Shown piece after piece: positions 33,511 through 59,047 of a stretch of 59,261 bases of DNA. Origin of the DNA: Gammaproteobacteria bacterium (GTDB lineage Bacteria > Pseudomonadota > Gammaproteobacteria > UBA4575); contig JABDMD010000163.1 in the NCBI GenBank assembly GCA_013001685.1, forward strand, positions 1 to 59,261, written 5' to 3'. The notes below the pieces were generated by a model that saw nothing but the letters and a program-made list of their open reading frames with translations, ran no database searches and had not been told where the DNA came from. A program made the position numbers and the translations under genes. How positions within the stretch are numbered: position 1 is the stretch's first letter; each line of letters opens with the position of its first letter.

Positions 33511-33539
33511 AGTGCTCGATTAGCATATCAACATTTCCT

Positions 33540-34991: not shown

Positions 34992-35279
34992 TAAACATGG
35001 CATCAACAAACTACCCAATCACACAATGGAGATTTAACATGCTTTTTAGCAATGCAGACATATTTCACTAATCCTAAAATAGATTAGAAATTGAGAGATG
35101 ATTGCGTTCCCAACAGAAAGTCATCAAACCCTACGCTAACCCCATCCAGTAATATTCAAACCAATTTATTGCACATCCAATGAAAGGTTCCCAAACCACA
35201 CGCAAAATTTGATTCATAAAAAGTATAATACAGTATATGATTATCGAATTTAATAGCTAATATAATTAATGTTTATGGC

Positions 35280-36278: not shown

Positions 36279-36300
36279 AACTTTTACTTACAAAGAAGTA

Positions 36301-41023: not shown

Positions 41024-41713
41024 TTACTCTAATACATATGTATAAGCCATCATTTGTCCGTTGCGATCTACCTGAATAGTAACCTCGGGCACAACTGATA
41101 GCTCTTGAACAGTTTGCAAAAAATTAGGGTCGGAAGCTGGCACATCATTAACCGCTTTAATCACATCTCCATTATACAAACCTAATGAGGCTGCTTTGGT
41201 ATCGGGTTGTATTTTTGACAGTGTAAAACCTACAATTTGCTCATCTTCTATCAGCGGCAAGAAACCAATTTCAGAAACCAGTCTCTGTTTCTCTTTGACA
41301 TAATCTGCCACTTCGCTTTTCGACAAAGTAATTGTTACTCGATTTTCTAAAGACTTCTCATATTCTGCTTGTAGAAGAATATCTCCAACACTACTTCGCA
41401 AAGACAAGATATATTCCTTGTCATTGCATTTAAGTTTTGCGGAATCCTGCAGCACTTTAAGTAAATCACAACCCTGGATATCATCTCCTAACTCTAATAA
41501 AAGCTCATCGCCATTTTCATCAACTAACATTGCATGAGCATTATTTTCACCTAAGAATGTGCCACTCAGTATCCAGTCGGGTTGATTGGCATAAGAAAAT
41601 GACGTTAGAAGAACAAAAATGGCCAACAAAGAAAACGTTGGCCATATATGTTTAAACAGGATAGAAATCAATCGGATAATTGAATGTGAAAGATGGAACA
41701 TCTTCTGCCCCAA
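41024..41713 (-). CDS. GspC-like protein with C-terminal PDZ domain; start uncertain
   Basis: TM/signal, LSGT...AML...GD.I.G..L..V (GspC HR-like), LGLYNGDVIKAVND...VDRNGQ (PDZ). Confidence 0.75.
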   Translation of the reverse strand: MGQKMFHLSHSIIRLISILFKHIWPTFSLLAIFVLLTSFSYANQPDWILSGTFLGENNAHAMLVDENGDELLLELGDDIQGCDLLKVLQDSAKLKCNDKEYILSLRSSVGDILLQAEYEKSLENRVTITLSKSEVADYVKEKQRLVSEIGFLPLIEDEQIVGFTLSKIQPDTKAASLGLYNGDVIKAVNDVPASDPNFLQTVQELSVVPEVTIQVDRNGQMMAYTYVLE

Positions 41714-42638
41714 AGTTAATCAGCTTTACACGCTGAAGTATTTTACTTTCAAGTGTTGGATTTCCTAATTGACTTGAAATAATACTCGCACTGGTAACTT
41801 TACCAGAAGGTGCAATGGTAATATTTAGTACTACCTTGCCCTGCAATGTAGCATCTTTACGCAACTCACGATTATAAAGGGTAAATAAACTACTTTTGTT
41901 ACGATCAAACATAATCTGAATTTTTTCTAGATCACGTGTTTTACCATAACCGGAACCATCACCATTGCCAGAACCATCGCCACTACCGGAACCGGTTCCA
42001 CCTCCCCCGAGCCCATCTACCCCACCAACTTGTCCGGCAGAACGACCACCAAGACCGTTACCACCTGTGCTGGTACTTAATGTTGCAGTGTTAATTCCAC
42101 CACTAGATTTACCATAGTTTTTTGTTACTAAAGAGCGCTTTGTTACTTGTCCAGATGTTCCACTCGTATTTAATGAACGCTCACCTAGAGCAGCTGATGA
42201 AGAAGATTTTTTAATATCTGACAAATCATCTTTCATCGCTAACAATCCAGAACTTGCTGCAACTTCTTTAGCTGACTTTGTAGGCACAGGTGCCTTCTTA
42301 GGCTTTGCAGCGGTCTTAATTGGTTCTTTCTTAGGTTGTGGCTTTGGCTTCACCTGCTTTGGTTTTGGTTTAGGTTTCACCTTTTTCTCAACTGGCACCA
42401 CTTTAGGTGGTGGAGGTGGGGGCACTTCCACTTTAGGAATTAGTTTTACTAAACGCTCAGGTTCTGGTTTTTCAACTTCTTCTGGTTCTGGCAAAGGTAA
42501 AAAGGTAAACAAAAACGCTAAGAAAATGATTCCCGCTACTGACCAACGTAAGAGCTTATTAAAACGCTGTTGTTGTTCAGGTTGGATCGTCCACGGTAAA
42601 TCATGTGGGTAATATGAATTCGAAATTACTGCGGCCAT
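41652..42638 (-). CDS. TonB-like energy transducer with AgmX/PglI-type C-terminal domain (GltG-like)
   Basis: One TM, Pro/Lys-rich then Gly-rich linker, LYNRELRKD..LQGKV...I.PSG.V...YPIDF. Confidence 0.85.
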   Translation of the reverse strand: MAAVISNSYYPHDLPWTIQPEQQQRFNKLLRWSVAGIIFLAFLFTFLPLPEPEEVEKPEPERLVKLIPKVEVPPPPPPKVVPVEKKVKPKPKPKQVKPKPQPKKEPIKTAAKPKKAPVPTKSAKEVAASSGLLAMKDDLSDIKKSSSSAALGERSLNTSGTSGQVTKRSLVTKNYGKSSGGINTATLSTSTGGNGLGGRSAGQVGGVDGLGGGGTGSGSGDGSGNGDGSGYGKTRDLEKIQIMFDRNKSSLFTLYNRELRKDATLQGKVVLNITIAPSGKVTSASIISSQLGNPTLESKILQRVKLINFGAEDVPSFTFNYPIDFYPV

Positions 42639-42639
42639 G

Positions 42640-43152
42640 TTATGACTCTATTTGGGACCCAATTTGGGTCTCTTTTTGAATTACGGATAGCGATATTTTA
42701 GAAAACCCTGCATAAGTCGCACAGAGACGCATTACGCGATCCAGCACTTTATATGGGACTTCCTTATCACCCATGATGGTAACTTCTCGCTCTGGATCTT
42801 CTTCAGATTCAGGCTCAACCTCGCTTGCTAATTGTTTTAACTTTTCGATAAATAAAGAAACTTCTATTGAATCTTCTTTCATCACTTCATCTATAGTAAT
42901 GACATCCTCACCTTGAAGCCGAACCGCTTCATTACTAAGCATTACTACAACAGATTCTTGCGGTCTCACTTCGGAAATCGATTCTGGCATTTCAATGCCT
43001 TTCGGATTAGGTAGTGGCGTGATCTCATTAGTATTCACCAGTAAGAAGAAAACCAATATGGTAAAAATATCCATCAACGACACCACATTAAATGGTGGTT
43101 GCTTATTACGCCCATGCTGGCGTTCCATGCGTTTTATTCTTCGATCATTCAC
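42640..43152 (-). CDS. ExbD/TolR family protein (AglS-like)
   Basis: NVVSLMDIFTILVFFLL TM with conserved Asp; IMGDKEVPY..L.RVM. Confidence 0.9.
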   Translation of the reverse strand: MNDRRIKRMERQHGRNKQPPFNVVSLMDIFTILVFFLLVNTNEITPLPNPKGIEMPESISEVRPQESVVVMLSNEAVRLQGEDVITIDEVMKEDSIEVSLFIEKLKQLASEVEPESEEDPEREVTIMGDKEVPYKVLDRVMRLCATYAGFSKISLSVIQKETQIGSQIES

Positions 43153-43178
43153 AATCTTTTCCTTAAATTCCTGAGATT

Positions 43179-43685
43179 CTATGAGACAGGAGCATCGCCC
43201 AGTGAAATCTCTGGAAATAGTTCAGCACGTGTGAAACTGCCACGCTCATCTTCAATATCAATGGCTCGAACAGCATCCATTACCAAGACAAGACTTTCAT
43301 AACCAATATCTGGCTCAAGTAAAATTGAAGCAGCAACATTGTCTGGGTATTTATATTTAACAGCTTGCAAAGTCTCCGAAAGTTTAAGCACATCATAACC
43401 TTCTTCAGTTTTAGCAATTTCATGTCGCTGAAAGTTGCCGTTCTTATCTTGGATAATTAAACGGTCATCTTTGACAATTACTTCTAAAACAATACGTTTT
43501 CTATCAGGCTCTACTTGATTAGACGCGGCAGGAAGATGCAATTCTAGAACTGTAATCTTTGCAAACACTAACATGATGAGTAGAAATGGAACTAAAATCA
43601 CCATCAAATTCATGAATGGCGTTACACTGAGTTCCGCATCACTATTCTTTTGAGAATGCCTGCGTAAACGTCTTTTATTAAGCAT
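43179..43685 (-). CDS. ExbD/TolR family protein (AglQ-like)
   Basis: ELSVTPFMNLMVILVPFLL TM; EPDIGYESLVLVMDAVR; ELFPEISLG. Confidence 0.88.
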   Translation of the reverse strand: MLNKRRLRRHSQKNSDAELSVTPFMNLMVILVPFLLIMLVFAKITVLELHLPAASNQVEPDRKRIVLEVIVKDDRLIIQDKNGNFQRHEIAKTEEGYDVLKLSETLQAVKYKYPDNVAASILLEPDIGYESLVLVMDAVRAIDIEDERGSFTRAELFPEISLGDAPVS

Positions 43686-43708
43686 TTTTAATACCCTTAC
43701 TTACGCAA

Positions 43709-44452
43709 CTAAGGTGCTGGTGCAGGTTTACGATCGGTTACAAAGTTCAGAACTTTTACAGAAGCCATTTCAAGGCTATCTACAATTTCTGTAGTCTTAG
43801 TTGATAACCAAGCATGCATTAGCAATAGTGGTATACCTACCATCAAACCAAATGCAGTGGTATTCATCGCAACCGAGATGTTTGCAGACAAAATATCGGC
43901 TTTATCAGCTGGATTGGCTTCGGCAATCGAAGTGAAAGCACCAATCAAACCAATAATGGTTCCTAGCAATCCAAGTAATGTAGCGATGTTCGCAAAGGTC
44001 GCTAGATAGTGTGTGCGCTTCTCCAGTTTCGGTAGCACTTCCATCAAGCCTTCTTCCATTGCAATTTCTACATCATCACGACGACGTGATGATTTTGCAC
44101 GTAGAAAACCATAATGAATAATTCGACTTACCGCAGCTTTAGATTTTTCTGCAAAACTCATTGCTTGTGATAAATTTCCAGATGCTAATGCTGACTGTAA
44201 TTTATTCCATGCAAGCGTATTGCGTGCACGTGATGCTGAAAGATATAAATATCTTTCAATCGCAATCGCAATACCAATCGCAAGAATAATTGCAATCGGA
44301 ATCATGAATGGTCCGCCAGACTGGAAAAATGTAACTACAGTTTCATATAGGCTCGGATCATGCACTTCTGGCGTGGCAAGCATTTCTGCTCCATCCATTA
44401 ATACAGTCTCTGAACCATCTGTAGTGATGATTTCTGACCCGTTCTCTTCCAT
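43709..44452 (-). CDS. MotA/TolQ/ExbB proton channel (AglR-like)
   Basis: ANIATLLGLLGTIIGLI.AF, ISVAMNTTAFGL. Confidence 0.93.
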   Translation of the reverse strand: MEENGSEIITTDGSETVLMDGAEMLATPEVHDPSLYETVVTFFQSGGPFMIPIAIILAIGIAIAIERYLYLSASRARNTLAWNKLQSALASGNLSQAMSFAEKSKAAVSRIIHYGFLRAKSSRRRDDVEIAMEEGLMEVLPKLEKRTHYLATFANIATLLGLLGTIIGLIGAFTSIAEANPADKADILSANISVAMNTTAFGLMVGIPLLLMHAWLSTKTTEIVDSLEMASVKVLNFVTDRKPAPAP

Positions 44453-44520
44453 TTTTTTGCTCCTTAGCGTTAAACGCTTAAATATAATTCTAGTTTTTAA
44501 ACTAGATTAAAAAACTACTA

Positions 44521-44793
44521 TCAATAATACTGTTCGTAATAACTTACTTTTCTCTTGTGCACATCCTTGTCTACAGGTCCAAGCACTTCATCAATTAAAC
44601 TTTGTAATGGTGATCCATCTAAATCACCTGGTTCAGGTGCTTTCCATGGAACAATTACCAATGCCTTAGGTAGTTCACGGTTACCAATAACATCAATGCC
44701 TTCTAGTTCTGGCGTAATACCTGGCACTTCGTCTTCTGCTGATATTGAATAGCAGGGTAATAACAAAGCAGTTAGTATTAGAATTCTTCTCAT
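44521..44793 (-). CDS. small exported protein (GltF/CglF-like)
   Basis: Signal peptide; I..IGNRELPK.L.IVPWK motif; position between the TPR genes and the motor genes. Confidence 0.65.
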   Translation of the reverse strand: MRRILILTALLLPCYSISAEDEVPGITPELEGIDVIGNRELPKALVIVPWKAPEPGDLDGSPLQSLIDEVLGPVDKDVHKRKVSYYEQYY

Positions 44794-44816
44794 TTGTTGT
44801 TGCCTTGTCTGAAAGT

Positions 44817-45485
44817 TTAGCTACCTTGCTTCTTTAACTGCGACATCCAAGCAATAACTTGCTTGTCTTCCCCACCAGTAAGTTTTAAATACTCTTGATA
44901 ATGGCCCAACGCACAGTCTATTTTCCTTAAATAGACATCACACAAAATAGCTAGATTCAGATGAGCGTTTTTATAATCCGGATATGCGGACAAAGCTCTC
45001 ATATAAAGCTGCTCGGCCTCTTCAAACTTACCATCTTCACGATTCAAAATGGCTAACTGGTTCAGAGCATAAGGATTATTAGGATTGATCTTTAGAGCCT
45101 TTTCAAACGCAGTTCTAGCTTTAGCCATATCACCCAATTCTTTATGTGCTACACCAATATTTACCCATGGACCTGAAATGCGCTCGTCCATCTTGGCTAC
45201 TTTTTGCATTTCTAAAATTGCAGTATCGTAATTTTTTGCACGCATATGTTTCAAAGCAGTGTTATAAGCACTTGCAGTTTTCTTGCTAATACGAAAATTT
45301 GGTTGCGCTAAAATTTTACCTGCTGACTTACTAGCGGATTTTTCAGTTTTTGCGCTCGTTTTAGAAGCAGTTGTCGATTTTTTAAGGCTCGGTAAATTTG
45401 CACAACTAGTAAGCATCACAACTAGCATGCTTGCAGTAATACTAATAGCAACAAATTTAATAAATATTCTGAACAAGGTCTTCAC
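44817..45485 (-). CDS. TPR lipoprotein (GltE-like)
   Basis: Lipobox LTSC; TPRs; HLNLAILCDVYL motif. Confidence 0.85.
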   Translation of the reverse strand: MKTLFRIFIKFVAISITASMLVVMLTSCANLPSLKKSTTASKTSAKTEKSASKSAGKILAQPNFRISKKTASAYNTALKHMRAKNYDTAILEMQKVAKMDERISGPWVNIGVAHKELGDMAKARTAFEKALKINPNNPYALNQLAILNREDGKFEEAEQLYMRALSAYPDYKNAHLNLAILCDVYLRKIDCALGHYQEYLKLTGGEDKQVIAWMSQLKKQGS

Positions 45486-48273
45486 TCCTTTCAGCTTTTA
45501 CATATTGTGCAGGTGATAGCACAGCTAATTCTGCCAAACTCTTTTTAACCCATTCGTCATAAATATCATCAGAAATACGTGAAGCATTTAGCTCATGAAG
45601 TTCAATTGCCTGCTCTTCAAACGGATAAGCTTGTTCTTCTAAAAGAATTTCATATTGGTCAAATTCTTCCACCGACAAACCTGAGGGACGATCAGACTCC
45701 ATCATTGCTATAGCAAATTCCTGATAAATTTTTGCCGACCAATAAGTTGCAGCAGTAGTAACTTGCTGAACTTTATAATTACTCGCCGCTTCATAAGCAT
45801 CTAATGCAACTTGCATTTGTCTCTTCTTAAGCTTTAAATTTTTCTTTAATGGATGAAGCAAAAAGATTTGGCTAAATGCATCATATTCTGGCTTAGCAAG
45901 ATCTAAGGTCGCATTAGCAGCTAAAAACTTAGTGCGATCACTACGTTCTGATCCTGCTCTCGCATCGGCATCAATAATTTTTCGCTGCCAATTTAATTTA
46001 TCATCAATGTATTTTCGCTCTGTATACATGTCGACAAGCTTCTGCATCGCTTCCATTGCCGGTTCAGTAGGTTTAGGATGGTCTTTCACATAGGCAATTA
46101 AGCTTTTTTCAGCACCATAAAAATCTCCACCCTTACCGTATAGCTCTGCTGCGTGAAAGCGCGCTTCACGTTTTAAGGCTGGATCACTTGAACTAGTGCC
46201 AATAGCTTCATACTCTTTCGCAGCCTTAAGATGTTGACCTCCTTTATCATATGAAACGGCTAATTTTTGAGTGACATCACCCTGTAATTCATGACTAGGA
46301 TAACGTTGACGGAAATCTTCTAAAGTACTCGATGCACGATTCCAGTCTTCAAGCTCTAGCAAGGCCGCTGATGCATCATATTGTGCAGTAGCACGAATTT
46401 CTGCATCCGGCACTACTTGACCCACTCTTAAATAATGGGAAACCGCAGCATCGAGGTCACCCGCCTTCTTGCTGGCTTCACCTTGTTTATAAACTGATGC
46501 CGCTAATCTATCTTTAAGTGGATCACGTAACTCTTCGTTAGCATCTACTTTACCTAATGCTTCTATATAAGCCTTTTCAGATGCACCATATTGACCGGTA
46601 TCAAACGCAGAATTTGCTTTTACAGTCCAAGCAGAGAGGACTAGTTTCTTATCTGCATTAGAATGGTCGCTAATAATAATGTCAGACGCTTTAGTGGCGC
46701 GCGCATAATCTTTTCGAGCGTAAAGTTCTTCAGCTGTTACCGTCATCACCTTGGCAACTTCGGGATGTTCGGGGAAGTTTTCGGTAAATTTAAAGCTGCT
46801 ATCGATTAATTGATTTTTAATTACAGATTGTTGGGCAGCTTGTTGATCTTGTTTTAGCCATTCGTTGTACGCAATGATGGCCGCATAACCGGACTCAGCA
46901 GATTTCGGGTGTTTTTTATAACCATATGCAGTTTTTTCATATTCTCGCACTGCATTTGCATATTGCTTAGTTTCATAATGCACTTCAGCAAGGTGAAAAT
47001 TCATCTCGGAAGCTTTTTCATCTTGTGGGAAAGATTCTAAGTACGCATTATACCAAGTAGCTGCTTCATTATAATATTCTTTAGGTTTCTTACGCTCTTT
47101 TTGTGCGATTGAATGATAATGCTTAGCAAGATCAGTAATGTTTGATTTTAAAAAAGTAACTATATCATCAGACTGAGCAACATCATTATGTTGCCAATAT
47201 TCTGACTTTAAGTTGTAGTCAACAACGAATTGTTTTTTCGCGCGTAATACTTCAGATGGAAATTCACCTTTCTTATAAGCCTCCATAGACTTAATCTGAA
47301 AATGTGGTGCTTTAGGACTAAATTGATGTGTTTCGACATATTGTCTATAGGTATTGGCCGCATCACTCCAGCGTCTTTTGTCTAAATATTGTTTGCCTAA
47401 TCTTTCATATACCAAAATTTCATAAGGTTGTCTTTCAGACTCAGTATAAAATTTAGATACTTCTTCAGGACCACCTAAATAAGCAAAACTTAAACTAATT
47501 GCACGTAAAGTGTCATCTAGTAATTCTTGATCGGGTTGAGATAACTGAGCAATATTTTCCTCTTCAACTCCAGCAACTAACAAGTTATCAAGTACGGTAT
47601 TAAAAGATGGAATACCGTAATCATAATCAACTTGTTTAAAGTGCGACCAACCGTGTTTGTACAAAGAGTGTATATAAAAACGACCTTCTGTCCCTTGTTT
47701 GATTACTGCCTCATACGCATCTTCAGCTTGTGCATATTGTTTTTCTACAAATAAAATTTCAGCACGTCTAAACTGAGTTTCGCCAAAATAGTTAGATTCT
47801 GGGTATTCATAGACTAGTTGATCTAAGGCTTTGAGGGCTTTCTCATGTTGGCCAGTAAGTTCGTAGGCACGAGAGAGTTGATAGAGAACTCGATCTCTAT
47901 TCGGGTATGCCGAATGATTAGCTAAAACATCCTCGTAAAGCTTAATAGTTTCTTTATAAGAATTTTTATCAGGGGCTTGAACGTTCTCTGCCATTTGATC
48001 TTCGGTCTCTTCCATACGTAAATCGCCCAATCTACGCAATACTTCTGGATGAACATTATTTGGATCTTCGTTAACCAGTTTTTTATACTGACTGATTGCT
48101 TTAGTACGGCTACTTACAACAGGCACATCTACTTTAACTTTGACACGTTTCTTATTGAGACCACCAATCGTACTGCCTCTCTTACCACCAAAGCTTCCAC
48201 AAGCAACTAGCATACTGGCAACAGTAACCATCAAAATTAATTTATGTGCAAGCTTTACCATAACTTCCACCAT
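45457..48273 (-). CDS. large TPR lipoprotein (GltD-like)
   Basis: Lipobox LVAC; many TPRs; C-terminal Y..LLEEQAYPFEE.AI..HE.N. Confidence 0.85.
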   Translation of the reverse strand: MVEVMVKLAHKLILMVTVASMLVACGSFGGKRGSTIGGLNKKRVKVKVDVPVVSSRTKAISQYKKLVNEDPNNVHPEVLRRLGDLRMEETEDQMAENVQAPDKNSYKETIKLYEDVLANHSAYPNRDRVLYQLSRAYELTGQHEKALKALDQLVYEYPESNYFGETQFRRAEILFVEKQYAQAEDAYEAVIKQGTEGRFYIHSLYKHGWSHFKQVDYDYGIPSFNTVLDNLLVAGVEEENIAQLSQPDQELLDDTLRAISLSFAYLGGPEEVSKFYTESERQPYEILVYERLGKQYLDKRRWSDAANTYRQYVETHQFSPKAPHFQIKSMEAYKKGEFPSEVLRAKKQFVVDYNLKSEYWQHNDVAQSDDIVTFLKSNITDLAKHYHSIAQKERKKPKEYYNEAATWYNAYLESFPQDEKASEMNFHLAEVHYETKQYANAVREYEKTAYGYKKHPKSAESGYAAIIAYNEWLKQDQQAAQQSVIKNQLIDSSFKFTENFPEHPEVAKVMTVTAEELYARKDYARATKASDIIISDHSNADKKLVLSAWTVKANSAFDTGQYGASEKAYIEALGKVDANEELRDPLKDRLAASVYKQGEASKKAGDLDAAVSHYLRVGQVVPDAEIRATAQYDASAALLELEDWNRASSTLEDFRQRYPSHELQGDVTQKLAVSYDKGGQHLKAAKEYEAIGTSSSDPALKREARFHAAELYGKGGDFYGAEKSLIAYVKDHPKPTEPAMEAMQKLVDMYTERKYIDDKLNWQRKIIDADARAGSERSDRTKFLAANATLDLAKPEYDAFSQIFLLHPLKKNLKLKKRQMQVALDAYEAASNYKVQQVTTAATYWSAKIYQEFAIAMMESDRPSGLSVEEFDQYEILLEEQAYPFEEQAIELHELNASRISDDIYDEWVKKSLAELAVLSPAQYVKAERSEDLVQNIY

Positions 48274-50222: not shown

Positions 50223-50230
50223 CTATAAAC

Positions 50231-50779
50231 TTATTCCCACTCCTTAACCACAAAGTCTGGTTGATGTTTTGGAGTTCGGTCGGTAATTTTTAACTCCAGA
50301 TACTTAGCACCCAATCCTTTATCGATAATACGATTTGCACCGCGTTTAAAATCCCTACCTTTAGGTCCCTTACCTACAAAATAAGCAACTAACTCATGCT
50401 CACCTGAAGGCAAGTTTCCAATATAAATTTGATGTACACCACCACGTAATAAAGCATCTACTTCACGTTCGGTATATAGATAATTAGCTACAATTTTTTC
50501 ATTCAATGTTACTTGCACTGAATCTAAATCAAAAAAATCACCCACATCAACCGATACATATACAGCAACCTGAGTGCTAGAAGGATAAAGTAACTCTTCT
50601 TCTAAGATATAAAGATCACGATTCAGCTCAAGCACTTCTTCTTTCAATACTTGAATATCTTCATCTAAACCCTGAAAGTCTTGATCTTCACTTGCATTTA
50701 ATTCACCAATATCTGCTGCAGCACTACAAACGTAGACCAACAAAATACAAGTAAAAAACAAAATAAATTTCTTATACAT
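50231..50779 (-). CDS. exported coiled-coil + beta-sandwich protein, unknown function
   Basis: Signal peptide from MYKKF (ATG 50779); LKEEVLELNRDL..LEEELL; no HTH. Confidence 0.75.
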   Translation of the reverse strand: MYKKFILFFTCILLVYVCSAAADIGELNASEDQDFQGLDEDIQVLKEEVLELNRDLYILEEELLYPSSTQVAVYVSVDVGDFFDLDSVQVTLNEKIVANYLYTEREVDALLRGGVHQIYIGNLPSGEHELVAYFVGKGPKGRDFKRGANRIIDKGLGAKYLELKITDRTPKHQPDFVVKEWE

Positions 50780-50814
50780 ATTTTTTCTCCACATACCCAA
50801 GCTAGTTATCTCAA

Positions 50815-51942
50815 TCAAAACCATGAAGAAAAATAGAATTGGATTGTTGTAGCATCAAATGAATATCCACTTCCTAAACTTCCCACATCTGTAACAGATT
50901 CAATTCCGGAGTAATCGTCATAGTCAAAATCCAAATACTCGATCGCAAGATTTAATGAAGCTGTGCGTAATAATTTGTAATCTTTAAATAAGTCATAACG
51001 AAGTCGACCACCTACAGCAAAGCTATCAAATGAACTCAGTTCTTTATCCCGTGCCATATACCTCAATCTAGAACTGAAATTGTCGCTATAAAAATCTGCT
51101 TTATCTTGTGTGTAATAGCGGCCATAAACATCAACAACCCATTGATTTCCAATATATTGTGAGTAATTTAGGTCAACGGTAGATGAACGAACATCCCAAG
51201 TGTCCCTATAAAACCGATAACCGAGTGATGTAGATGCACGATGCTGCCAATACTTAATACCTTTCAAAGAGTAAGCTTGCCCAGTACGTGTGTCTGGGTA
51301 CTCTTCTGAACCACTACCTAGCGAGACACCGTTTACAAAAACAAAGCGATATGGGTTGTTTAAAAAGCCTTCTTCTACTGTGGCTTCATAATCAAATGCC
51401 ATTACAAATGATTTAGTAATAACTTGTGAGATACCAGCTCTGAATGAATAACGATCTAGATCTTCTGCAAAACTATCTAGGTCAACTCTTTCTACATCAT
51501 CTGACCCGATTGAAGCGCCAATATTCATTTTTGTCATGGCACCAAACATTTCATGAGAAATATCAAAACTCACCATATTTGATTCATAATCGTCTTCTTC
51601 GCTATATGTGTAGGAAAGATCCATAAGAGTGTTGTCACGCAAGTAGGTGCCACCTAGCGTGTATTCATCTCTATCTTCTTCATATTTACTAGCACCAGCC
51701 AACACATCTGGTGATGCACCACTTATACTATCGTGATGGTAACCACCATAAACTGAATACTTTCCAGCAAAGTTTTTACGCACCAGCATAGTGGCACCGT
51801 CTACTTCAACACCACCGCCATCATAATAGTGATAACCAATATCTGCTCTTTCTTCAGGCAAAACTTCAGCCCAAGTATTTTGAATACTAAAAATACTAAG
51901 AATGAAAATTACTAGATATATTGTGTGTGTAGTCTTTATCAT
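50815..51942 (-). CDS. DUF3570 family outer-membrane beta-barrel protein
   Basis: Signal peptide, Y.GGG..V, D.ISGAS, E.DY.S, GFL.NPYR, YR.Y.D.W, RYY.Q..A.FY, terminal aromatic residue. Confidence 0.85.
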   Translation of the reverse strand: MIKTTHTIYLVIFILSIFSIQNTWAEVLPEERADIGYHYYDGGGVEVDGATMLVRKNFAGKYSVYGGYHHDSISGASPDVLAGASKYEEDRDEYTLGGTYLRDNTLMDLSYTYSEEDDYESNMVSFDISHEMFGAMTKMNIGASIGSDDVERVDLDSFAEDLDRYSFRAGISQVITKSFVMAFDYEATVEEGFLNNPYRFVFVNGVSLGSGSEEYPDTRTGQAYSLKGIKYWQHRASTSLGYRFYRDTWDVRSSTVDLNYSQYIGNQWVVDVYGRYYTQDKADFYSDNFSSRLRYMARDKELSSFDSFAVGGRLRYDLFKDYKLLRTASLNLAIEYLDFDYDDYSGIESVTDVGSLGSGYSFDATTIQFYFSSWF

Positions 51943-51956
51943 TTTAATTATTAAAA

Positions 51957-52223
51957 TTAGTTACAGCCACAACCACCGCCATGCGCGTAACCCGCACCGC
52001 GAGCACCTTCACGTGTATTGAATACATGTTGTCTATATTTGTTAGATAGTGGATCTTTATTAAAACTCATAATCGGATCAGCCAAATACTCACGCTCATA
52101 AGGCGCAACCCAAGGCTCAATATTCGGCAAACTTGGTAAACGGAAAGATGAACACGCACTCACAGATATTAAAATTGAAATAATGAAAATCGCTGGCAAT
52201 ACTTTTGTTGCTTTTTTAAGCAT
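51957..52223 (-). CDS. DUF4266 family lipoprotein
   Basis: Lipobox VSAC; PWV.PYER..LAD..M; REGA.G...GGGCGCN. Confidence 0.9.
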   Translation of the reverse strand: MLKKATKVLPAIFIISILISVSACSSFRLPSLPNIEPWVAPYEREYLADPIMSFNKDPLSNKYRQHVFNTREGARGAGYAHGGGCGCN

Positions 52224-52237
52224 AAATCACCTCTTTC

Positions 52238-52747
52238 TCATCCTTCTTTTCTTAAGGCCTGTATCTGTCTGTGATACTTCTCGATATAGCCTTTTTTAAA
52301 GCCACGATTTACATGCCTAATCTTTCCAGCACGATCAATAATGATGGTTGTTGGCATGGCCTTAATATCAAAACTTTTGCTAACGTCTTTCTCGGTATCA
52401 AATAACACTGGGAAATTAACCTCTAACTTATTTGCTAAATGAATAGCTTTAGATTGGTCTTCATCGAGATTGATACCTAATAATTCGAAGTCGTATGGAT
52501 CAAGTGATTCATGCAACTCGTTTAAATGTGGGATTTCTTCAGCACAGGGGCCGCACCAAGTGGCCCAAAAATTCAACATGACGATACGGCCTTTTAGTTC
52601 ACTCAAACGCACATTCTTTCCAGATGTACTTTTTAGAACAAAATCTGGTGCACTATCTGCTTTGATCTTTGCAAAAGCCACTACGCTTATGAAACTCATA
52701 AATAACAACGTAGTGATAGTAATTATAATCAGCTGTTTTTTTCTCAT
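52238..52747 (-). CDS. TlpA-like thiol-disulfide oxidoreductase
   Basis: NFWATWCGPC, MPTT.IIDR.G. Start moved to the ATG at 52747. Confidence 0.93.
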   Translation of the reverse strand: MRKKQLIIITITTLLFMSFISVVAFAKIKADSAPDFVLKSTSGKNVRLSELKGRIVMLNFWATWCGPCAEEIPHLNELHESLDPYDFELLGINLDEDQSKAIHLANKLEVNFPVLFDTEKDVSKSFDIKAMPTTIIIDRAGKIRHVNRGFKKGYIEKYHRQIQALRKEG

Positions 52748-52794
52748 AGCTTTTCGCTTCCTTGAATACTCAGTAATTCCGTAAATCAGACTCA

Positions 52795-53433
52795 TTAGAA
52801 AAACACACCTATATTCGCTGTAATTTCGAAATTGTTAGTAAATTCGTTATCTCCTAGCAAATCCGTTTCATAGACGATGTCACGCACATCCAGTCGTAGT
52901 GATAACCAGTCTGTTGGCAACACTTTCATGCCAAAACCCACGTTATAGGCAAACTCATCTTCATCATTAAACTCAACATTGCCTACCCCAAACATCAGGT
53001 AAAAACTACTGGTCATTGCAAAATTTCGCCCTAGAAAGATTTCGCCAGGAAAAATGTTGTAACCAATTGATACGTTGTAATAGTTAATGTCTTCGTTCTG
53101 TAGAATATTGAAGGTGGTAAGATTCTCTAATGTAGCGTCAGATGCTTCGGACATACCAACAGCGCCTTCAATAAAAAAGTCTTCAGTAATATGATATGCC
53201 GCTCGCAAGCCATAACTAGGTTCGGTACCAAAATCTTCTACATCTAAAACACCGTAATAAGCCGTGATTTCAAAATTTTCTGTATCAATACGTGGTACAA
53301 CGATATCTCTACGATAAATATCCGGTTCAATTACTTGCTCCTGTGTAGATTCAGGCTCAGGTGCATCATCTTCTGCATACACTGGCTGCAAAATAAAAAT
53401 GAGTAATAAAATAAGAATTAATTTAACTTTCAT
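52795..53433 (-). CDS. outer-membrane beta-barrel protein (GltA/GltB-like)
   Basis: Signal peptide, IDTENFEI, R.AYHITEDFF.E, alternating beta strands, terminal FF. Confidence 0.85.
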   Translation of the reverse strand: MKVKLILILLLIFILQPVYAEDDAPEPESTQEQVIEPDIYRRDIVVPRIDTENFEITAYYGVLDVEDFGTEPSYGLRAAYHITEDFFIEGAVGMSEASDATLENLTTFNILQNEDINYYNVSIGYNIFPGEIFLGRNFAMTSSFYLMFGVGNVEFNDEDEFAYNVGFGMKVLPTDWLSLRLDVRDIVYETDLLGDNEFTNNFEITANIGVFF

Positions 53434-53455
53434 GCGATGTCCTATAAGTTAAGCA

Positions 53456-54271
53456 TCAGAAAAAAAATGAAACCCCTGCGCTGAATTCATCAAACTCATC
53501 GTTCCGATCATCTTCTGATAGAACGATGTAACGTCGATAATCACCACGCAAAAAGAATCTTTTAGTTAAGTAATAACGCATTCCCAAACCTAAGTTGGCC
53601 AAGTCATCTTCAGTTTCTATAACTTGGATTAATGCACCTTTTGGTTCGTTTTCAAAACGACCATAGCCAATAGTAAAATGTGGCGTGAGACGCCAATCAG
53701 GGAAAGGTGTGGAAACTAAATTAACAGCATATATATCTGAACTGGATAATTTGCCTGCCACTTTCGAAACTTGAAATTCAAGTGCAATATTCTCGGTAAA
53801 CTTATATGCGAGTCGAACGGAAACTATTGGATCGCTATCAAATTCACCTGCTGAGATTCCAAATTCAATGCGACGATGTAGATAGTCATCATATAAAACA
53901 TCTCTAAATGATTTTGGAATACCTGCTACCGTTAAGGTTTGTTCCATTTGCGCACGACTTACCCAACCCTCTACACCACGATCATTCCTGACTTTAAACC
54001 AGTCAGTTTTGCGCTTCATAATATCTATCCAATCATGGCGTTTAACCACATGAAAAATTGGATAACCTCGACCTGGACCTGTGTGCAATTCAATGTAAGG
54101 GTCAACGATCTTTACGCGTTGATATTCTTTTTCTGCAAAAGCATTAGAAAAAGGTGCAAATACAAGCACAAAAAATAAAAGCACTACAAATGAGTGAGTT
54201 ATATTTTGGAAAGAATCAAAAAAATATCTACAATTAAAGTAATTTTCTTTCATAGAATTTATGGTGCGCAA
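53456..54271 (-). CDS. bacterial SH3 domain + outer-membrane beta-barrel protein; start uncertain
   Basis: DPYIELHTGPGRGYPIF...WFKV...GWV (SH3b) followed by an 8-strand-like barrel ending SFFF. Confidence 0.85.
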   Translation of the reverse strand: MRTINSMKENYFNCRYFFDSFQNITHSFVVLLFFVLVFAPFSNAFAEKEYQRVKIVDPYIELHTGPGRGYPIFHVVKRHDWIDIMKRKTDWFKVRNDRGVEGWVSRAQMEQTLTVAGIPKSFRDVLYDDYLHRRIEFGISAGEFDSDPIVSVRLAYKFTENIALEFQVSKVAGKLSSSDIYAVNLVSTPFPDWRLTPHFTIGYGRFENEPKGALIQVIETEDDLANLGLGMRYYLTKRFFLRGDYRRYIVLSEDDRNDEFDEFSAGVSFFF

Positions 54272-54783
54272 CCTGCTACATTAACCGCAGGATTAGCCAT
54301 GATTAATGTGCAGCTAGGAATAGTGGCTGGTGCTATTGAACATGCTGAGCCATCTGTAGGAGCTGAGATAGAACGCCATTCTGAAATTGCGTTATAACAA
54401 AGACTTGCTGTATTAAATCGTGCACCACCGGTAGGATGCCCTGACCCTGTAGCTCTAGTTAAGAGTAGATTATTATTTAAAGTTCGCGCTTCAACAGCAT
54501 TGAAGTTCATCATCATTTCTATAGAACCCATTGCCGCACCAGGTGTTAAACCAAAGCCTGCTGCTGGGACACCACTAGGTAAGTTATGGCAACCATTTTG
54601 TGAACAAGACTGCCCATCTGATGTGGTGTTATGCATTATAGGATCTACACATGTCTCATAGAGATTGATGCATAGGCTTACACCACTGTTAGGAAGTGAT
54701 TCGTTGGATGTACTGTCACATCCTTGTAATAAAATGATTGGTGCTATTGCGACCAGCAGCACCAGTCGCAATATTGATTGCAC
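54259..54783 (-). CDS. Cys-rich lipoprotein with an atypical CX4CH heme motif
   Basis: Lipobox LQGC; CSQNGCH; distal GHP; resembles the last heme domain of the upstream gene. Confidence 0.7.
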   Translation of the reverse strand: MQSILRLVLLVAIAPIILLQGCDSTSNESLPNSGVSLCINLYETCVDPIMHNTTSDGQSCSQNGCHNLPSGVPAAGFGLTPGAAMGSIEMMMNFNAVEARTLNNNLLLTRATGSGHPTGGARFNTASLCYNAISEWRSISAPTDGSACSIAPATIPSCTLIMANPAVNVAGCAP

Positions 54784-54804
54784 GACAAACCTCTGTTTTA
54801 TCTA

Positions 54805-57738
54805 CTAATTTAGACAGGTTGGATTACTAGCTTCACCCATCATAAGCCAGGTCAAAATTGTGTCGTAAGAGGATCCTGGACCAGTGTCTAAGAAAACCGG
54901 TCGAGTGGCACTAAGCGGATCATTGATATCCACAAGAATCTGTGGATGCGGTAGATTAGGAGCAACATTGTCCGAAATAGGACGTAATAACAAATCATTG
55001 TTCATTGGATCACAAAGATTATTTATCATTGCGCGCGTAACATTGAAGTCACCAGCTTGATTACCTGTTAGGACAAAACGATTGAACTCATCTGCTTCAT
55101 CGTTTTCATCTGCAAACTGAGCAGGATCAACACTAGAGTCTCCACTAAAGCCTTCCGGTGCATGGCAAGACATACATTCAGCTTTTAGTATTGGATGAAT
55201 CTGGTCATTAAATACAGTTCGACTTACTGTTCTGCTCGAAACAATCGCATCTCGAACAACATACTGTCCATTTACAAGTTCGTAAGGTTCGTTTGTATAC
55301 TGTGCACCAATATCTACCCAAGTAGAAATTAGCCATTTTTCATCGGCTGTTAACATTGAAGCATGATCAGTCACTCCAATATCGTAACTGCCACCTGCTC
55401 TCAACTTAGTATTAAAAATAGTTTCAACTAAGTGACTAGTTCGCGAACTGTTTGCTGAGCTGCCTACGCGCACTAACGCTGGACCACGTGGGAATACTAC
55501 ACGGCCGCTTTCTCTAACAATTGGTGGAAGCGGTATACCATTCTCATCAACTCTGAATGGCCCACGCATTAATTGATCATAAGAAATTATATGCCCTGCA
55601 AATCCAGATAACCCACCTTCAAGTGTAAGTCCTGCTGAAATTGGATCACTCAACAAGCTATTTTTGTGGCAGCTAACACATGTATTCGCACCGCGGTCCT
55701 TTTCCCAAATTGGTTGAATATGTGTTACATAATCAATTCGACCATTTACAGGAATTGGAGTATCTAAATTATCAAGCGCTAATTTAAAGTTTTGCTCCAA
55801 ACCACTTGACCAATACTCTGTAAAGTCAGCACTAATAGGACTCAAACTTGGTGCACCTTGATTATTCAATCGCGCACGAGTTTCAGCCATAGTTTCTGCA
55901 CCTAATGCATTTGCATGACTACCCGCTATGGGAGAAACGTTTAATGCAGATTCAGCACGTCTCGGTGAATGACAACCACTACATGTTCTAGTTTCACCTG
56001 GACGCACTTGCAGCCAGTTCGTATGCGTCTGGAATGCTCGTCCGTCTTTATCCAATACACTAATAGTTAAAGCAGAGTCAGCTGGAACCTTTGCTAATAT
56101 AGAGCCATCAGGTTCTACAGGAACATATCCCAACACTTCTTGCATTTCAAAATTGGTACGGCCAATCGCACTTCTAGAAATTCCTGGTGGGGTTGGCAAT
56201 GCACGTGTTACACGTGCAAAGTAGCCTGGTCGATTTAAATAACTTGCGTTATTTGGATCTTTCATCGCTAATAAATCTGGAACACCGCCATTTTTAGGAA
56301 TATTTTCACCTAATGCAGGTACAAGTACGCGATCGCCCATAATATCTAAAAAGTCAGTGTGGTAAACAGACTTTACACCTATCACACCCATACCTTGACC
56401 GTTACCTAAACCATTTGGCTCAGCAGCCATTATTGGATCAACAGGTTTCTCAGGAATAATTAATGGGTAATCACTTAATGCGCGTGGGAAAAGTGGCACT
56501 GGATCTACTAACGCTTTACCTGGTGAATCGGTTTGTACAACGCGTGCAACTTGCGAATCAAAATCTAGCATCCAAATTTGGTACTTCGTAGGACCAAATA
56601 CTTGTTTAACACTACCATTAAACGGATGGGTTTCTGTTGGTATTCCACCAAATTGTGCATTTGGTGCAATTGCATAAGAAACGACTGCACGGTTAGTTCC
56701 ATCCCATAGTGGCATTGGCGTGGAATAACGACCACCCGGTGAGAAACTTCCATCAAAGGTTACAACCTGGTTATTAAAGTACATGTCGATTTGACCATTG
56801 CAACCCGCAGGCACACCGGGAGCTGGTTCGCAATGCTCTGAATAATTAGCAGTATCAATTGAAACTATGGTTCCACCTTCATCGGTACCAGATAGTGGCA
56901 TTAATGTAGACATGATTCTTCCATTTCTTTGCTCCATGGGATGCAAGAAAGAGTTACCAGGACTAAACGCACCATATAAAACAAATAAATCAGTACCATC
57001 TGGATTTACTGTAAAAATCGGAAAGTGATTTCGATTCGCTAAATGATCCCAACGACTAAACATAATTCGCCCATCTTTGAGTACAGTAGGGTTGCGATCA
57101 TGACTTTGGTTAAATGAAATCTGAGTAATGTCTTGTGTAGCAGGATCCAACACATGTAATTGTAATGCTGGTTCTCTTTCGTATTCATCTAATGTTTTAT
57201 GTTTTGCAATATTTTGATCCGTCATCATTTCCTGCATACGCTTTTGACGATTTGAAGTAAATACGATTCTTCCGTCAGGCAAATATGCAGGATCCACATC
57301 GTCGCCAAATTCAGCGACCACGTTATCAGTTATCAAAGGAGCATATTGTTTAGTGGCAACATCCATTTCCCATAAGCTGAATGTTTCATCATTAGGACCA
57401 CGCATAGAGAAAACTACTTTAGTAGCGTCAAAATTAACCGAAGGATCAGAAACATCACCTTGACCTTGCGTATAAGCCGCGGTGATATTCATAGGTAGTA
57501 TTACTGGAATTGAGGCATCCTTATAAATGAGGTCACCACCAGCTGAAAAGGTAACGCCATCGGTAGGATCACCAATCGCATCCAAATTTCTTTGAGCATA
57601 TACAACAGGGAAATCACCATTGATAGTCGTAAACCCTTCTGATGATGTAGATGAACCCGTCTTACAACTAGGGAGTACTAACAGTGCACATAGCACTATA
57701 ACTGTCGCCACCCAAATATGTGTAAAATTCCTTTTCAT
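54805..57738 (-). CDS. multiheme beta-propeller lipoprotein related to hydrazine synthase alpha (HzsA-like)
   Basis: Lipobox LPSC; TolB/PD40-like repeats (DP.YLPDGRIVFTS.R, DGRIMFSRWD); VEPDGS...VPA...GETRTCSGCH; further CVSCH and CMSCH. Start moved to the ATG at 57738 (GGAG RBS). Confidence 0.85.
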   Translation of the reverse strand: MKRNFTHIWVATVIVLCALLVLPSCKTGSSTSSEGFTTINGDFPVVYAQRNLDAIGDPTDGVTFSAGGDLIYKDASIPVILPMNITAAYTQGQGDVSDPSVNFDATKVVFSMRGPNDETFSLWEMDVATKQYAPLITDNVVAEFGDDVDPAYLPDGRIVFTSNRQKRMQEMMTDQNIAKHKTLDEYEREPALQLHVLDPATQDITQISFNQSHDRNPTVLKDGRIMFSRWDHLANRNHFPIFTVNPDGTDLFVLYGAFSPGNSFLHPMEQRNGRIMSTLMPLSGTDEGGTIVSIDTANYSEHCEPAPGVPAGCNGQIDMYFNNQVVTFDGSFSPGGRYSTPMPLWDGTNRAVVSYAIAPNAQFGGIPTETHPFNGSVKQVFGPTKYQIWMLDFDSQVARVVQTDSPGKALVDPVPLFPRALSDYPLIIPEKPVDPIMAAEPNGLGNGQGMGVIGVKSVYHTDFLDIMGDRVLVPALGENIPKNGGVPDLLAMKDPNNASYLNRPGYFARVTRALPTPPGISRSAIGRTNFEMQEVLGYVPVEPDGSILAKVPADSALTISVLDKDGRAFQTHTNWLQVRPGETRTCSGCHSPRRAESALNVSPIAGSHANALGAETMAETRARLNNQGAPSLSPISADFTEYWSSGLEQNFKLALDNLDTPIPVNGRIDYVTHIQPIWEKDRGANTCVSCHKNSLLSDPISAGLTLEGGLSGFAGHIISYDQLMRGPFRVDENGIPLPPIVRESGRVVFPRGPALVRVGSSANSSRTSHLVETIFNTKLRAGGSYDIGVTDHASMLTADEKWLISTWVDIGAQYTNEPYELVNGQYVVRDAIVSSRTVSRTVFNDQIHPILKAECMSCHAPEGFSGDSSVDPAQFADENDEADEFNRFVLTGNQAGDFNVTRAMINNLCDPMNNDLLLRPISDNVAPNLPHPQILVDINDPLSATRPVFLDTGPGSSYDTILTWLMMGEASNPTCLN

Positions 57739-58003
57739 TACCAACTCCAAAAATGTATGAAGATCCTTCTCTATGTAAAAACTCACGTAGATTCAGTCAT
57801 TAACATCAAAAAAATTGACGTTATAACCGCTCTTACGTAATAGCCCTATGTCTCTGATTTAAAAGAACTATATGAACTGATTATTCTCTGGTTAAATGAG
57901 AGGAACCATGACAGGAGTATCAACGGTCAAAACAAACAGACTAATGGTATTAATAATTACCGTACTGAATTAGAAAAAATTTATTCAGTATGTTAGGTGT
58001 GAA

Positions 58004-59047
58004 TCACTTCACACTAGAATTGGAATTTGAAGAGTTTTGTGACTTTTTTTGTTCTTTTTCTAGGCCTTGTGAATAGTAAAGTTTACCTTGCTTATCAACG
58101 ATCACTCCTTCCACACCCTCTAAAATATTCAATAGTGCAAGACCTTTATCTGGTCCCATCACAAAGATACTGGTAGACAATGCATCTGTGGTTGTCGAAT
58201 CACTCGCAAGTATCGAAGCGCTACGAACCTCGCTTGCTGAATTACCTGTCGTTGGATGAATAATGTGATGATATTTCTCACCATCTTCAATAAAGAATCT
58301 CTCATAATCTCCAGATGTAGAAAGAGCTTCGTCTTGTAAGGGCAACATAACTATCACTTCTTCTGTATTTGCAGGATCTCGAATACCCACCAACCAAGCA
58401 CGCCCACGACGGTCTCCAAGTAAACGAGTATCACCACCAGCTGAGACTAATGCATGCTTAATTCCCAGATTACGTAAATGTTGAATCGATTGATCCACCG
58501 CAAAACCTTTTGCAATCCCTCCCAAATCAATTTTTACACCATGCTTTAAATAGCTAATACTCAATTGATGTTTGTCCAACACTAAATTTTTATAATCAAT
58601 GAGTAGCTTTGCAGCCGCAACTTCTTCTTCTGTGGGTTTTATTTCTTTTCGATAATTATACAAGTGACCAACACTTGCATAGGTAATATCAAATGCTCCA
58701 TTGGTAAGTTGCGAAAACTCAATTGACTTTTCAATCAATTCAAATAAATCTTGATCGACTTCTATTGGCCCTTCGTGCGCATACTTATTTATTTTCGATA
58801 ACTGACTTTGTTCAATGTAAGGACTCATCAAACGATTAACACGATCCATTTCTGCGAGCACTTTATCTATGCCCTTTTGACGCACATCTGCATCTGCATG
58901 CCATATTTCAACACGGATTGTTGTTCCCATGATGGCTTCATCTTCTGTCTGCCATTCAGCACTTAATTGCGATGAAAATGCAAAAAATATAAAACAGGCC
59001 AGAATACGGAAGCTATTCAAAAACATCGATATAAATATATATTTCAT
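58004..59047 (-). CDS. apbE: FAD:protein FMN transferase
   Basis: MGT, GAFDIT, IDLGGIAKG, GGD, STSGDYE, HHIIHP.TG, DALST. Confidence 0.96.
   Translation of the reverse strand: MKYIFISMFLNSFRILACFIFFAFSSQLSAEWQTEDEAIMGTTIRVEIWHADADVRQKGIDKVLAEMDRVNRLMSPYIEQSQLSKINKYAHEGPIEVDQDLFELIEKSIEFSQLTNGAFDITYASVGHLYNYRKEIKPTEEEVAAAKLLIDYKNLVLDKHQLSISYLKHGVKIDLGGIAKGFAVDQSIQHLRNLGIKHALVSAGGDTRLLGDRRGRAWLVGIRDPANTEEVIVMLPLQDEALSTSGDYERFFIEDGEKYHHIIHPTTGNSASEVRSASILASDSTTTDALSTSIFVMGPDKGLALLNILEGVEGVIVDKQGKLYYSQGLEKEQKKSQNSSNSNSSVK

Follow-up and report, generated by a model that had tools for sequence, protein, structure and literature searches.

What do 18 adjoining envelope genes, drawn from heme, flavin, thiol and proton-channel families, do together? 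The question is raised by positions 41024-59047 of contig JABDMD010000163.1 from a gammaproteobacterium, referred to here as the window, i.e. the whole stretch of 59,261 nucleotides (nt) that was analysed. In this locus, a cassette encoding a HzsA-like heme lipoprotein, small outer-membrane barrels, a TlpA-like protein, DUF4266 and DUF3570 precedes a core encoding a TolQ/ExbD proton motor, a TonB-like transducer and a scaffold of TPR proteins of the Glt type, with apbE upstream of both. An earlier note on this DNA had taken these genes for one machine made of a redox half and a motor half. On balance, the 18 genes probably make up a single trans-envelope system: a machine of the Glt/Nfs type in the simple form of the core complex, with a redox-active outer-membrane module. 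The reading of the earlier note is partly supported: linkage in other genomes strongly supports the association of redox and motor parts, and the division into two parts needs revision. No clean line can be drawn between the halves. Among the genes of the ‘redox half’ is a module of paired barrels and a lipoprotein that runs parallel to gltK-gltB-gltA of Myxococcus xanthus, and this half seems to include the outer-membrane components that a Glt-type machine would otherwise lack. Three questions meet in this locus: the role of the Glt core complex, the role of DUF3570 flavinylation and the role of HzsA homologues outside anammox bacteria.

Conserved linkage of cassette and core

The single machine of the earlier note presupposed that redox and motor parts occur together in other genomes. 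They do, usually as neighbours, and given this recurrent linkage the two halves cannot be described as usually unlinked. The sample was an even selection of 400 genomes of the window's class, together with the window's own genome (G000); named relatives are labelled Gammaproteobacteria or Thiotrichales. A GltD-like match is present in 78/400 genomes including the window's own (G271 was not scored) and a HzsA-like match in 54/401, likewise including it. Leaving that genome aside, the counts are 77/400 and 53/400, from which about 10 genomes with both would be expected by chance, against 50 observed. The three genomes that are HzsA-positive and GltD-negative hold weak partial matches (E 3.6e-36 to 4.5e-14), with no cassette at these places (L105-L107). 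Seven of the 53 HzsA-like matches are weaker than E 1e-30, and GltD is present in each of the 46 genomes whose match reaches E ≤ 1e-47. Both genes lie on one contig at ≤25 kb in 36 genomes and at ≤10.4 kb in 33. Of the 36, 34 have the HzsA-like gene on the upstream side of gltD, either co-oriented at ∼5-8 kb or divergent at ∼8-10 kb.

Gene content, families and adjacency were observed by mapping all 18 families, with phmmer and then with hidden Markov models built from the first matches, over 89 GltD-anchored stretches (up to 20 kb, from 74 genomes) and 20 further stretches. The 89 loci derive from 95 GltD places, six fragments or weak rows being omitted: two in G129, two in G419, G164:C114 and one in G321. 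Two blocks recur. The cassette has six genes (HzsA-like, SH3-barrel, barrel, TlpA, DUF4266 and DUF3570) and the core nine, encoding p197, a TPR protein of 655 residues, the GltD-like protein, a TPR protein of 222 residues, p90, TolQ, two ExbD proteins and a GltG-like TonB protein. The cassette stands co-oriented upstream of the core in 22 loci, the cassette or its HzsA-like gene is divergent in 13, ApbE alone accompanies the core in 7, and the core is alone in 47. By genome, 35/74 are linked within the stretch fetched, a floor since several core-only stretches stop at a contig end. Where DUF3570 and p197 are direct same-strand neighbours, as in 62 loci, the median distance between their aligned parts is 50 bp, and it is ≤150 bp in 53 of them.

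The borders of the blocks differ from those drawn in the earlier note. The gene for p197 heads the core in most loci, cassette present or not, and p90 is found in most core loci; p197 therefore belongs to the core and does not merely stand at the border of the halves. The position of ApbE varies: some loci have it in front of the HzsA-like gene, others with DUF3570 on one side and p197 on the other, and in others again it alone precedes p197, so that it often adjoins the core instead of the cassette.

The linkage extends far beyond the sample. A scan with an alignment of 18 HzsA-like proteins returned at least 578 relatives in named genomes. Among the best 80 of these loci, a core is co-oriented downstream in 47, divergent upstream in 7, absent despite enough flank in 2, and 24 are too short; linked loci thus make up 54 of the 56 long enough to judge. 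Being those nearest to the query, the best 80 give a biased sample. The named loci range over Thiotrichales-labelled metagenome-assembled genomes (85-86% identity), Nevskia, Acidiferrobacterales, Chromatiales, many Burkholderiales and Nitrospirota. On a tree of GltD-like proteins, made with FastTree only and with long-branch and composition warnings, linkage is clustered. Upstream of the 54 GltD loci without HzsA-like and DUF3570 genes, namely the core-only and ApbE-only ones, no alternative conserved cassette is obvious from open reading frame (ORF) sizes, the ORFs being unclustered.

Nine genomes have two Glt-like loci. One locus of each consists of cassette and scaffold without TolQ, ExbD and TonB-like genes (L037, L053, L055, L059, L060, L067, L077, L078 and L081), and the other is a complete core without cassette (L058, L040, L065, L030, L038, L051, L073, L063 and L070). 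Such pairs suggest that two scaffolds can share a single motor, as Glt and Nfs of M. xanthus share Agl (PMC3858216).

Organization of the locus

In the window, all 18 ORFs of 41024-59047 lie on the minus strand. Family assignments rely on Pfam and NCBIfam searches, and signal peptides, lipoboxes and membrane anchors of the 18 proteins were read by eye. The gene names given in the earlier note, in the order given there, agree with the family matches wherever a family is known. That note had counted 17 co-oriented genes, of which 16, from the HzsA-like to the GspC-like gene, were said to overlap or to be separated by short gaps. Co-orientation, coordinates and spacing are as it described; the counts are each one too low, since there are 18 ORFs (its own list names 18) and 17 of them span the HzsA-like gene to the PDZ gene. 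Taking the longest ORFs, neighbours within these 17 overlap by up to 62 nt or are separated by up to 68 nt. The apbE gene, placed ∼260 bp upstream in the note, ends ∼265 nt before the next in-frame ATG of the HzsA-like gene and 217 nt before its longest ORF.

DUF3570 and p197, at the junction of the two presumed halves, overlap by 10 nt, which leaves no room for a terminator or promoter between them. A consensus scan found no promoter-like or terminator-like site at this cassette/core junction; with the same scan, promoter-like sites are fewer than in shuffles and terminator-like sites about as numerous as expected. Three sequencing runs labelled metatranscriptomic whole-genome shotgun, probably DNA, gave contigs of only 86-383 bases, none bridging DUF3570 and p197, and are uninformative on co-transcription.

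The last ORF of the series, encoding a membrane-anchored PDZ/GspC-like protein (41024-41713, minus strand; PDZ 20 bits and GspC_delta 61 bits, both below cut-offs), is a local, lineage-specific addition: a co-oriented gene of this kind stands at this place in only 4 of the 89 GltD-anchored loci (L001, L003, L057 and L062). Directly 3′ of the stop codon of the TonB-like gene, a hairpin with a 10-bp stem followed by a T-run occupies 41619-41645 on the minus strand; it falls within the 5′ coding part (transmembrane helix) of the PDZ/GspC-like ORF. As this ORF is present in so few loci, the conserved operon may end at the hairpin.

Heme lipoproteins

The HzsA-like lipoprotein (54805-57786, minus strand) combines a PD40/TolB-like beta-propeller, the HZS_alpha middle domain (PF18582, 73.3 bits for a cut-off of 26.6), which is followed by a heme site, and three CXXCH motifs, CSGCH, CVSCH and CMSCH, the third on a C-terminal extension. 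The lipobox C41 and the sites C602/C605/H606 and C703/C706/H707 are invariant in 18/18 sequences. Compared with the alpha subunit of hydrazine synthase (5c2v_A), the family profile matches in four collinear segments at E 1e-20. The equivalog model of this subunit, NF052339, gives 79.9 bits against a cut-off of 800 and covers the middle domain only, and the cluster has no beta- or gamma-like hydrazine synthase gene. In one relative (L089; G208:C11, about 124.4-126.9 kb), matches to the HzsA-like gene are fragmentary, and one fragment has four in-frame stops; this gene may have degenerated there, with the other cassette genes and the core still in place.

The third heme domain is confined to a clade that also has the gene for a second, monoheme-type lipoprotein. 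This CX4CH lipoprotein of 174 residues (54259-54783, minus strand; motif CSQNGCH) is encoded only beside long, three-heme HzsA-like genes (10/10 sample loci), and no locus of the short type has it. Its lipobox C22 and C60, C65 and H66 are invariant in 17/17 aligned relatives. No match was found in Pfam, NCBIfam or, by sequence at E ≤ 1, the Protein Data Bank (PDB); the only lead in the Atlas is clusters bearing PSCyt1 at 0.94. The +2 residue after the lipobox Cys is Asp here and in several relatives, and Gln, Asn, Glu, Gly or Ser in others. In Escherichia coli, a lipoprotein with Asp at +2 stays in the inner membrane. Under that rule, the CX4CH protein would be an inner-membrane entry point for electrons and not a GltK-like partner in the outer membrane.

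Barrels, thiol proteins and flavinylation

Two small outer-membrane barrels follow. The one of 271 residues (53456-54271, minus strand) has an N-terminal periplasmic SH3 domain (SH3_3, 28.8 bits) and is a candidate GltB-like protein (PF13505, 44 bits; partial TIGR04565); the one of 212 residues (52795-53433, minus strand), a candidate GltA-like protein, matches TIGR04565 (OMP_myx_plus) at 146.5 bits for a cut-off of 60, as well as PF13505. No other gene of the genome matches TIGR04565. A complex prediction of the two barrels with the GltC-like TPR protein scored 0.00 against a mark of 0.32, with controls not run, and is not used as evidence.

The membrane-anchored thiol:disulfide oxidoreductase encoded at 52238-52795 (minus strand) is TlpA/ResA-like with a WCGPC motif. 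It belongs to the AhpC-TSA/Redoxin type (108.6 and 98 bits), not to PF13899, and its best NCBIfam match, ResA, reaches 127 bits, below the cut-off of 170. The next gene (51957-52223, minus strand) encodes a small DUF4266 lipoprotein (PF14086, 77.7 bits) with a C-terminal CXC (GCGCN). A DsbD gene is present in the genome on contig C110, not adjacent to the cluster. ApbE, the FAD:protein FMN (flavin mononucleotide) transferase (58004-59047, minus strand; PF02424, 277 bits), has an N-terminal export signal, and its family, DUF4266 and DUF3570 are thus found together in one cluster.

DUF3570 (50815-51942, minus strand; PF12094, 130 bits) is the probable substrate of ApbE. In Chlorobium luteolum, a DUF3570 protein is flavinylated by ApbE on two sites; the usual companions of this family, whose function is called ‘uncertain’, are a thioredoxin-like protein (PF13899), DUF4266 and, in many clusters, DsbD (PMC8238504, Meheust et al. 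2021). The cassette protein has the motifs SGAS at 74-77 and AGAS at 83-86, and the consensus of its subfamily is SSAS and TTAS, as against [S/T]GA[S/T]; at least 90% of 29 sequences keep Ser77, the last Ser of the first motif. The AlphaFold2 (AF2) model, with a pLDDT of 91.6, is a barrel of 16 long strands, and Foldseek retrieves outer-membrane barrels only (FadL, PelB, OmpG, AlgE and PgaA; TM 0.4-0.54). The motif sites map to the last part of strand 3 and the loop between strands 3 and 4, and strand parity places this loop with the long loops of the barrel. If the protein follows the topology usual for outer-membrane proteins, its flavins would be located in the lumen or at the outer face, as judged from secondary structure alone. 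Overall, the cassette DUF3570 is divergent: PF12094 aligns over profile positions 113-384 of 427, and identity to a canonical copy on contig C19 is ∼30%. That copy (403 residues; PF12094, 212 bits over the full profile) is part of a second cluster, in the canonical flavinylation form, of TlpA-like, DUF4266, DUF3570 and ApbE genes (G000:C19, L109, 3601-6608), which has no HzsA-like, barrel or Glt genes beside it.

Motor and scaffold

The core begins with p197 (50231-50824, minus strand), an exported protein of 197 residues. Its AF2 model (pLDDT 89.1) consists of a long helix and a beta-sandwich. Pfam and NCBIfam give no match, a PDB sequence search nothing below E 0.45, and Foldseek against the PDB nothing at E ≤ 1e-3, with generic beta-sandwiches only; the Atlas gives only unnamed clusters auto-labelled ‘AraC’, without a Pfam family. 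Three TPR proteins follow, all on the minus strand: a periplasmic protein of 655 residues with a C-terminal helical region (48255-50222), GltC-like by size and position and matched by TPR families; a large GltD-like lipoprotein of 938 residues with an LVAC lipobox (45457-48273), matched by TPR_6; and a GltE-like lipoprotein of 222 residues with an LTSC lipobox (44817-45485), again matched by TPR families. In the GltD-like protein, the repeats are of the YbgF/CpoB type (TIGR02795, 94 bits for a cut-off of 90.1). Architecture, sizes, lipoboxes and gene order of the trio fit GltC, GltD and GltE. The small exported p90 (90 residues; 44521-44793, minus strand), a member of the core with no Pfam or NCBIfam match, is possibly a GltF analogue.

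The motor is encoded by one PF01618 and two PF02472 genes in adjacent position, kept together in most core loci: a TolQ/ExbB/AglR-type proton channel (43709-44452, minus strand; 98 bits), ExbD/TolR paralogue 1 (43179-43685, minus strand) and paralogue 2 (42640-43152, minus strand). The transmembrane Asp of paralogue 2 is present in 69/69 family members; at this position, paralogue 1 has Asn in 66/70 and Asp in 4. Such a pair points to a heteromeric stator that has a single protonatable site. Including the TolQ of the cluster, the genome has six genes of the MotA/ExbB/TolQ family. The TonB-like transducer (41652-42638, minus strand; TIGR01352, 37.8 bits) has ∼31 cytoplasmic residues, one transmembrane helix and a Pro/Lys-rich linker, and ends in a GltG/GltJ-type domain, the AgmX/PglI C-terminal domain NF033768 (63.6 bits for a cut-off of 40), the only such match in the genome. 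No FHA, ZnR or GYF domain was found in it with Pfam and NCBIfam.

Genomic surroundings

The contig of the window ends 214 bases beyond apbE. In a relative of the same genus (L113, 2455-8615), the molybdenum cofactor genes MoeA, MoaE, MoaB/Mog-type and MoaA lie directly upstream of apbE. On the other side, housekeeping genes occupy the flank at 27228-37494 and offer no clue to function; among them (surE, pcm, an nlpD-like gene, hom and a LysR regulator) lies an ORF of 397 residues without Pfam match at E ≤ 1e-5 (36301-37494, minus strand).

Proposed working and alternative readings

Taken as one system, the genes suggest the following working. The TolQ-like channel and the pair of TolR-like proteins, one with a protonatable Asp and one with Asn, would form the inner-membrane stator, and proton flow through it would move the GltG-like (TonB-like) transducer. 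A periplasmic scaffold of TPR lipoproteins, p197 and p90 would transmit this motion to the paired barrels. The outer-membrane module, contributed by the cassette, would comprise the two small paired barrels, one of them tethered by SH3, and the HzsA-like lipoprotein, here with the CX4CH lipoprotein. By analogy with the exposure of CglB by GltABHK, the barrels may hold, position, expose or conformationally drive the heme lipoprotein. Electrons would take a route from DsbD to TlpA, the CXC of DUF4266, FMN-DUF3570 (its FMN attached by ApbE) and the hemes, or the reverse, and so would pass between a periplasmic thiol/flavin chain and hemes at or across the outer membrane. The linkage of cassette and core is established; the machine may operate, assemble or export its redox module.

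Several observations weigh against such a unified system. Cassette and core are on different contigs in 11/47 genomes with a strong HzsA-like match, and in several, for example L090, L091, L092 and L096, the contig is long enough to show them truly apart; adjacency is therefore not obligatory. Among the 77 core-bearing genomes, 27 have no HzsA-like match, hence the core can work without the cassette, and the tree of GltD-like genes contains a large core-only clade (24/26 rows). The TlpA-DUF4266-DUF3570-ApbE unit is free-standing in the same genome (L109) and widely elsewhere (PMC8238504), which means that it has a function of its own. Finally, the GltE model NF033758 gives only 43 bits for the GltE-like protein, far below its cut-off of 225.

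Such facts feed the view that two independent envelope systems, a DUF3570/HzsA-like redox system and a Tol/Glt-like one, stand side by side through inherited synteny, with no functional coupling. The core is alone in 47 of the 89 GltD loci, free-standing cassettes exist (L090-L092 and L094-L096), and the flavinylation unit has its separate copy in the window's own genome. Mere neighbourhood is nevertheless hard to square with co-occurrence in 50 of 53 genomes where chance would give about 10, all 46 of the stronger HzsA-like matches being accompanied by GltD. Adjacency is moreover kept over many families, two phyla and two arrangements, co-oriented and divergent, the genes at the junction overlap, and the cassette carries candidate Glt-type barrels otherwise lacking in the core. 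We consider it quite unlikely that the two are uncoupled. A different objection accepts one system and denies the redox payload. The locus would then be a second Tol-Pal-like system for tethering or integrity of the outer membrane, with the HzsA-like protein as a TolB-like partner, the barrels as Pal/OmpA-like anchors, and TlpA, DUF4266 and DUF3570 in maturation or repair (reduction of apocytochromes, envelope thiols). TolQ, TolR-type and TolA/TonB-like proteins, a PD40/TolB-like propeller, SH3 on one barrel and the YbgF/CpoB-type repeats that exceed the TIGR02795 cut-off in the GltD-like protein all suit this view, as does the fact that the best NCBIfam matches of the TlpA-like protein are the cytochrome-maturation reductases ResA and TlpA. 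It is nonetheless unlikely, in view of two heme sites invariant in every HzsA-like sequence aligned and of a dedicated ApbE with a conserved FMN-site Ser in DUF3570, which favour real electron transfer; the five other MotA/ExbB/TolQ-family genes of the genome also imply that housekeeping systems are probably separate.

Glt-type markers (NF033768, TIGR04565 and one TolQ with two TolR) could also announce a true gliding apparatus comparable to the Agl-Glt machinery of Myxococcus, in which the heme lipoprotein would be the adhesin at the surface. This is highly improbable. The cytoplasmic part of the GltG-like protein is short and has none of the FHA, ZnR and GYF domains, so there is no visible link to a cytoplasmic platform; equivalents of GltI, GltJ and GltH are lacking in the cluster, and the core alone has been argued to be insufficient for motility (PMC3169522). 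With no cytoplasmic platform encoded in the cluster, the gliding interpretation fails.

A Glt/Nfs-type machine with a redox-active outer-membrane module is the interpretation we retain, and conserved linkage gives the Glt core complex, of unknown function since 2011, a candidate outer-membrane module and cargo. It is tempting to go further, to a proposal that we hold to be doubtful: the ancestral job of Agl-Glt/Nfs machines may have been redox and not motility. The gammaproteobacterial core would then use protons to assemble, expose or gate a conduit for electrons in the outer membrane. This conduit would be made of the covalently flavinylated 16-strand porin DUF3570 and the HzsA-like surface cytochrome and be fed from the periplasm by a thiol relay of DsbD, TlpA and DUF4266. 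If true, this would be a new type of electron transfer across the outer membrane, by a flavin-porin and a cytochrome, coupled to proton-motive force. According to record titles, the locus is found in the cultured bacteria Piscinibacter caeni, Ideonella lacteola, Rubrivivax albus and Scleromatobacter humisilvae, so that the hypothesis is testable by ordinary genetics and biochemistry.

Comparison with known systems

The closest relative in print is the gammaproteobacterial core complex, composed of aglRQS, gltC, D, E and G and one extra gene, of unknown function and, as argued by Luciano et al. 2011, not sufficient alone for motility (PMC3169522). With this complex and with Agl-Glt/Nfs, the cluster shares one TolQ-like and two TolR-like proteins, a TonB-like protein that ends in the AgmX/PglI domain, a trio of TPR proteins that correspond in size, two of them lipoproteins, and a layout as a single probable operon. 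The cluster fits the core complex and not a full gliding machine (PMC3169522, PMC3858216 and a 2020 preprint). The available parts of these three sources describe a stand-alone set of seven genes and make no mention of the present cassette. In the outer-membrane module of M. xanthus, the lipoprotein CglC/GltK has 172 residues, GltB 275, GltA 256 and GltC 673 (PMC4488436); the paralogues GltA and GltB, both OmpA-like barrels, lend stability to each other and to GltC, and the lipoprotein adhesin CglB is exposed by the module (PMC4488436, PMC11761067). In the cluster, a lipoprotein of 174 residues, barrels of 271 and 212 and, further on, a TPR protein of 655 repeat the order gltK-gltB-gltA-gltC (PMC4488436), a likeness of sizes, order and family names only. 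As with Agl and Nfs, some genomes have a motor-less scaffold locus besides the full one. Differences from Agl-Glt are also clear. Genes for a cytoplasmic platform (GltI, AglZ and MglA) are absent from the cluster, to which this search was confined, p197 and p90 are two further conserved core genes without a known family, and the adhesin CglB is replaced by a c-type cytochrome lipoprotein and a thiol/flavin chain.

With the known flavinylation clusters, the locus has in common all four families, tandem xxA[S/T] sites in DUF3570, the C-terminal CXC of DUF4266 and a DsbD in the genome. It departs from them in its divergent DUF3570, its thioredoxin of the AhpC-TSA/Redoxin type, the added HzsA-like cytochrome and two barrels, and the junction with a Glt-type core. 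The main text of PMC8238504 reports no Tol/Exb, TPR or hydrazine-synthase-like neighbours of such clusters and no outer-membrane location of DUF3570. As to hydrazine synthase, HzsA homologues outside anammox bacteria have no known function (PMC12758564). The cluster protein resembles HzsA (5C2V chain A) in a collinear beta-propeller, a middle domain ending in C-x-G-C-H, a second heme and a C-terminal W-x-D-x-G-A-Q; unlike HzsA, it is a lipoprotein with, in one clade, a third heme domain and a CX4CH partner, and its hosts are not anammox bacteria.

Tol-Pal and TonB-ExbBD systems offer a proton-driven TolQ/TolR-type stator with a transmembrane Asp, an elongated, Pro-rich transducer with a TonB-like C-terminal domain, YbgF-type TPR repeats, a PD40 propeller and OmpA-like barrels. 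Here, in contrast, there are two TolR paralogues (Asp and Asn), a large TPR scaffold and redox cofactors, with no TonB-dependent transporter and no Pal in the cluster. In porin-cytochrome conduits such as MtrCAB and Cyc2, an outer-membrane barrel is encoded beside a c-type cytochrome lipoprotein, a likeness of possible working only, with no sequence relation implied. In contrast to these conduits, the barrel itself would here carry covalent FMN, the cytochrome would be HzsA-like and a proton-driven motor would be attached.

The earlier note knew of no functional description of the combined system, and none was found in print; nor was a paper joining a Glt core with a HzsA-like/ApbE/DUF3570 cassette, within the parts of the literature available, to which the supplementary tables of PMC8238504 and PMC3169522 may add such neighbours. 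Each half is already in print as a system of unknown function, and we read their combination as a new variant of the Agl-Glt/Nfs machine.

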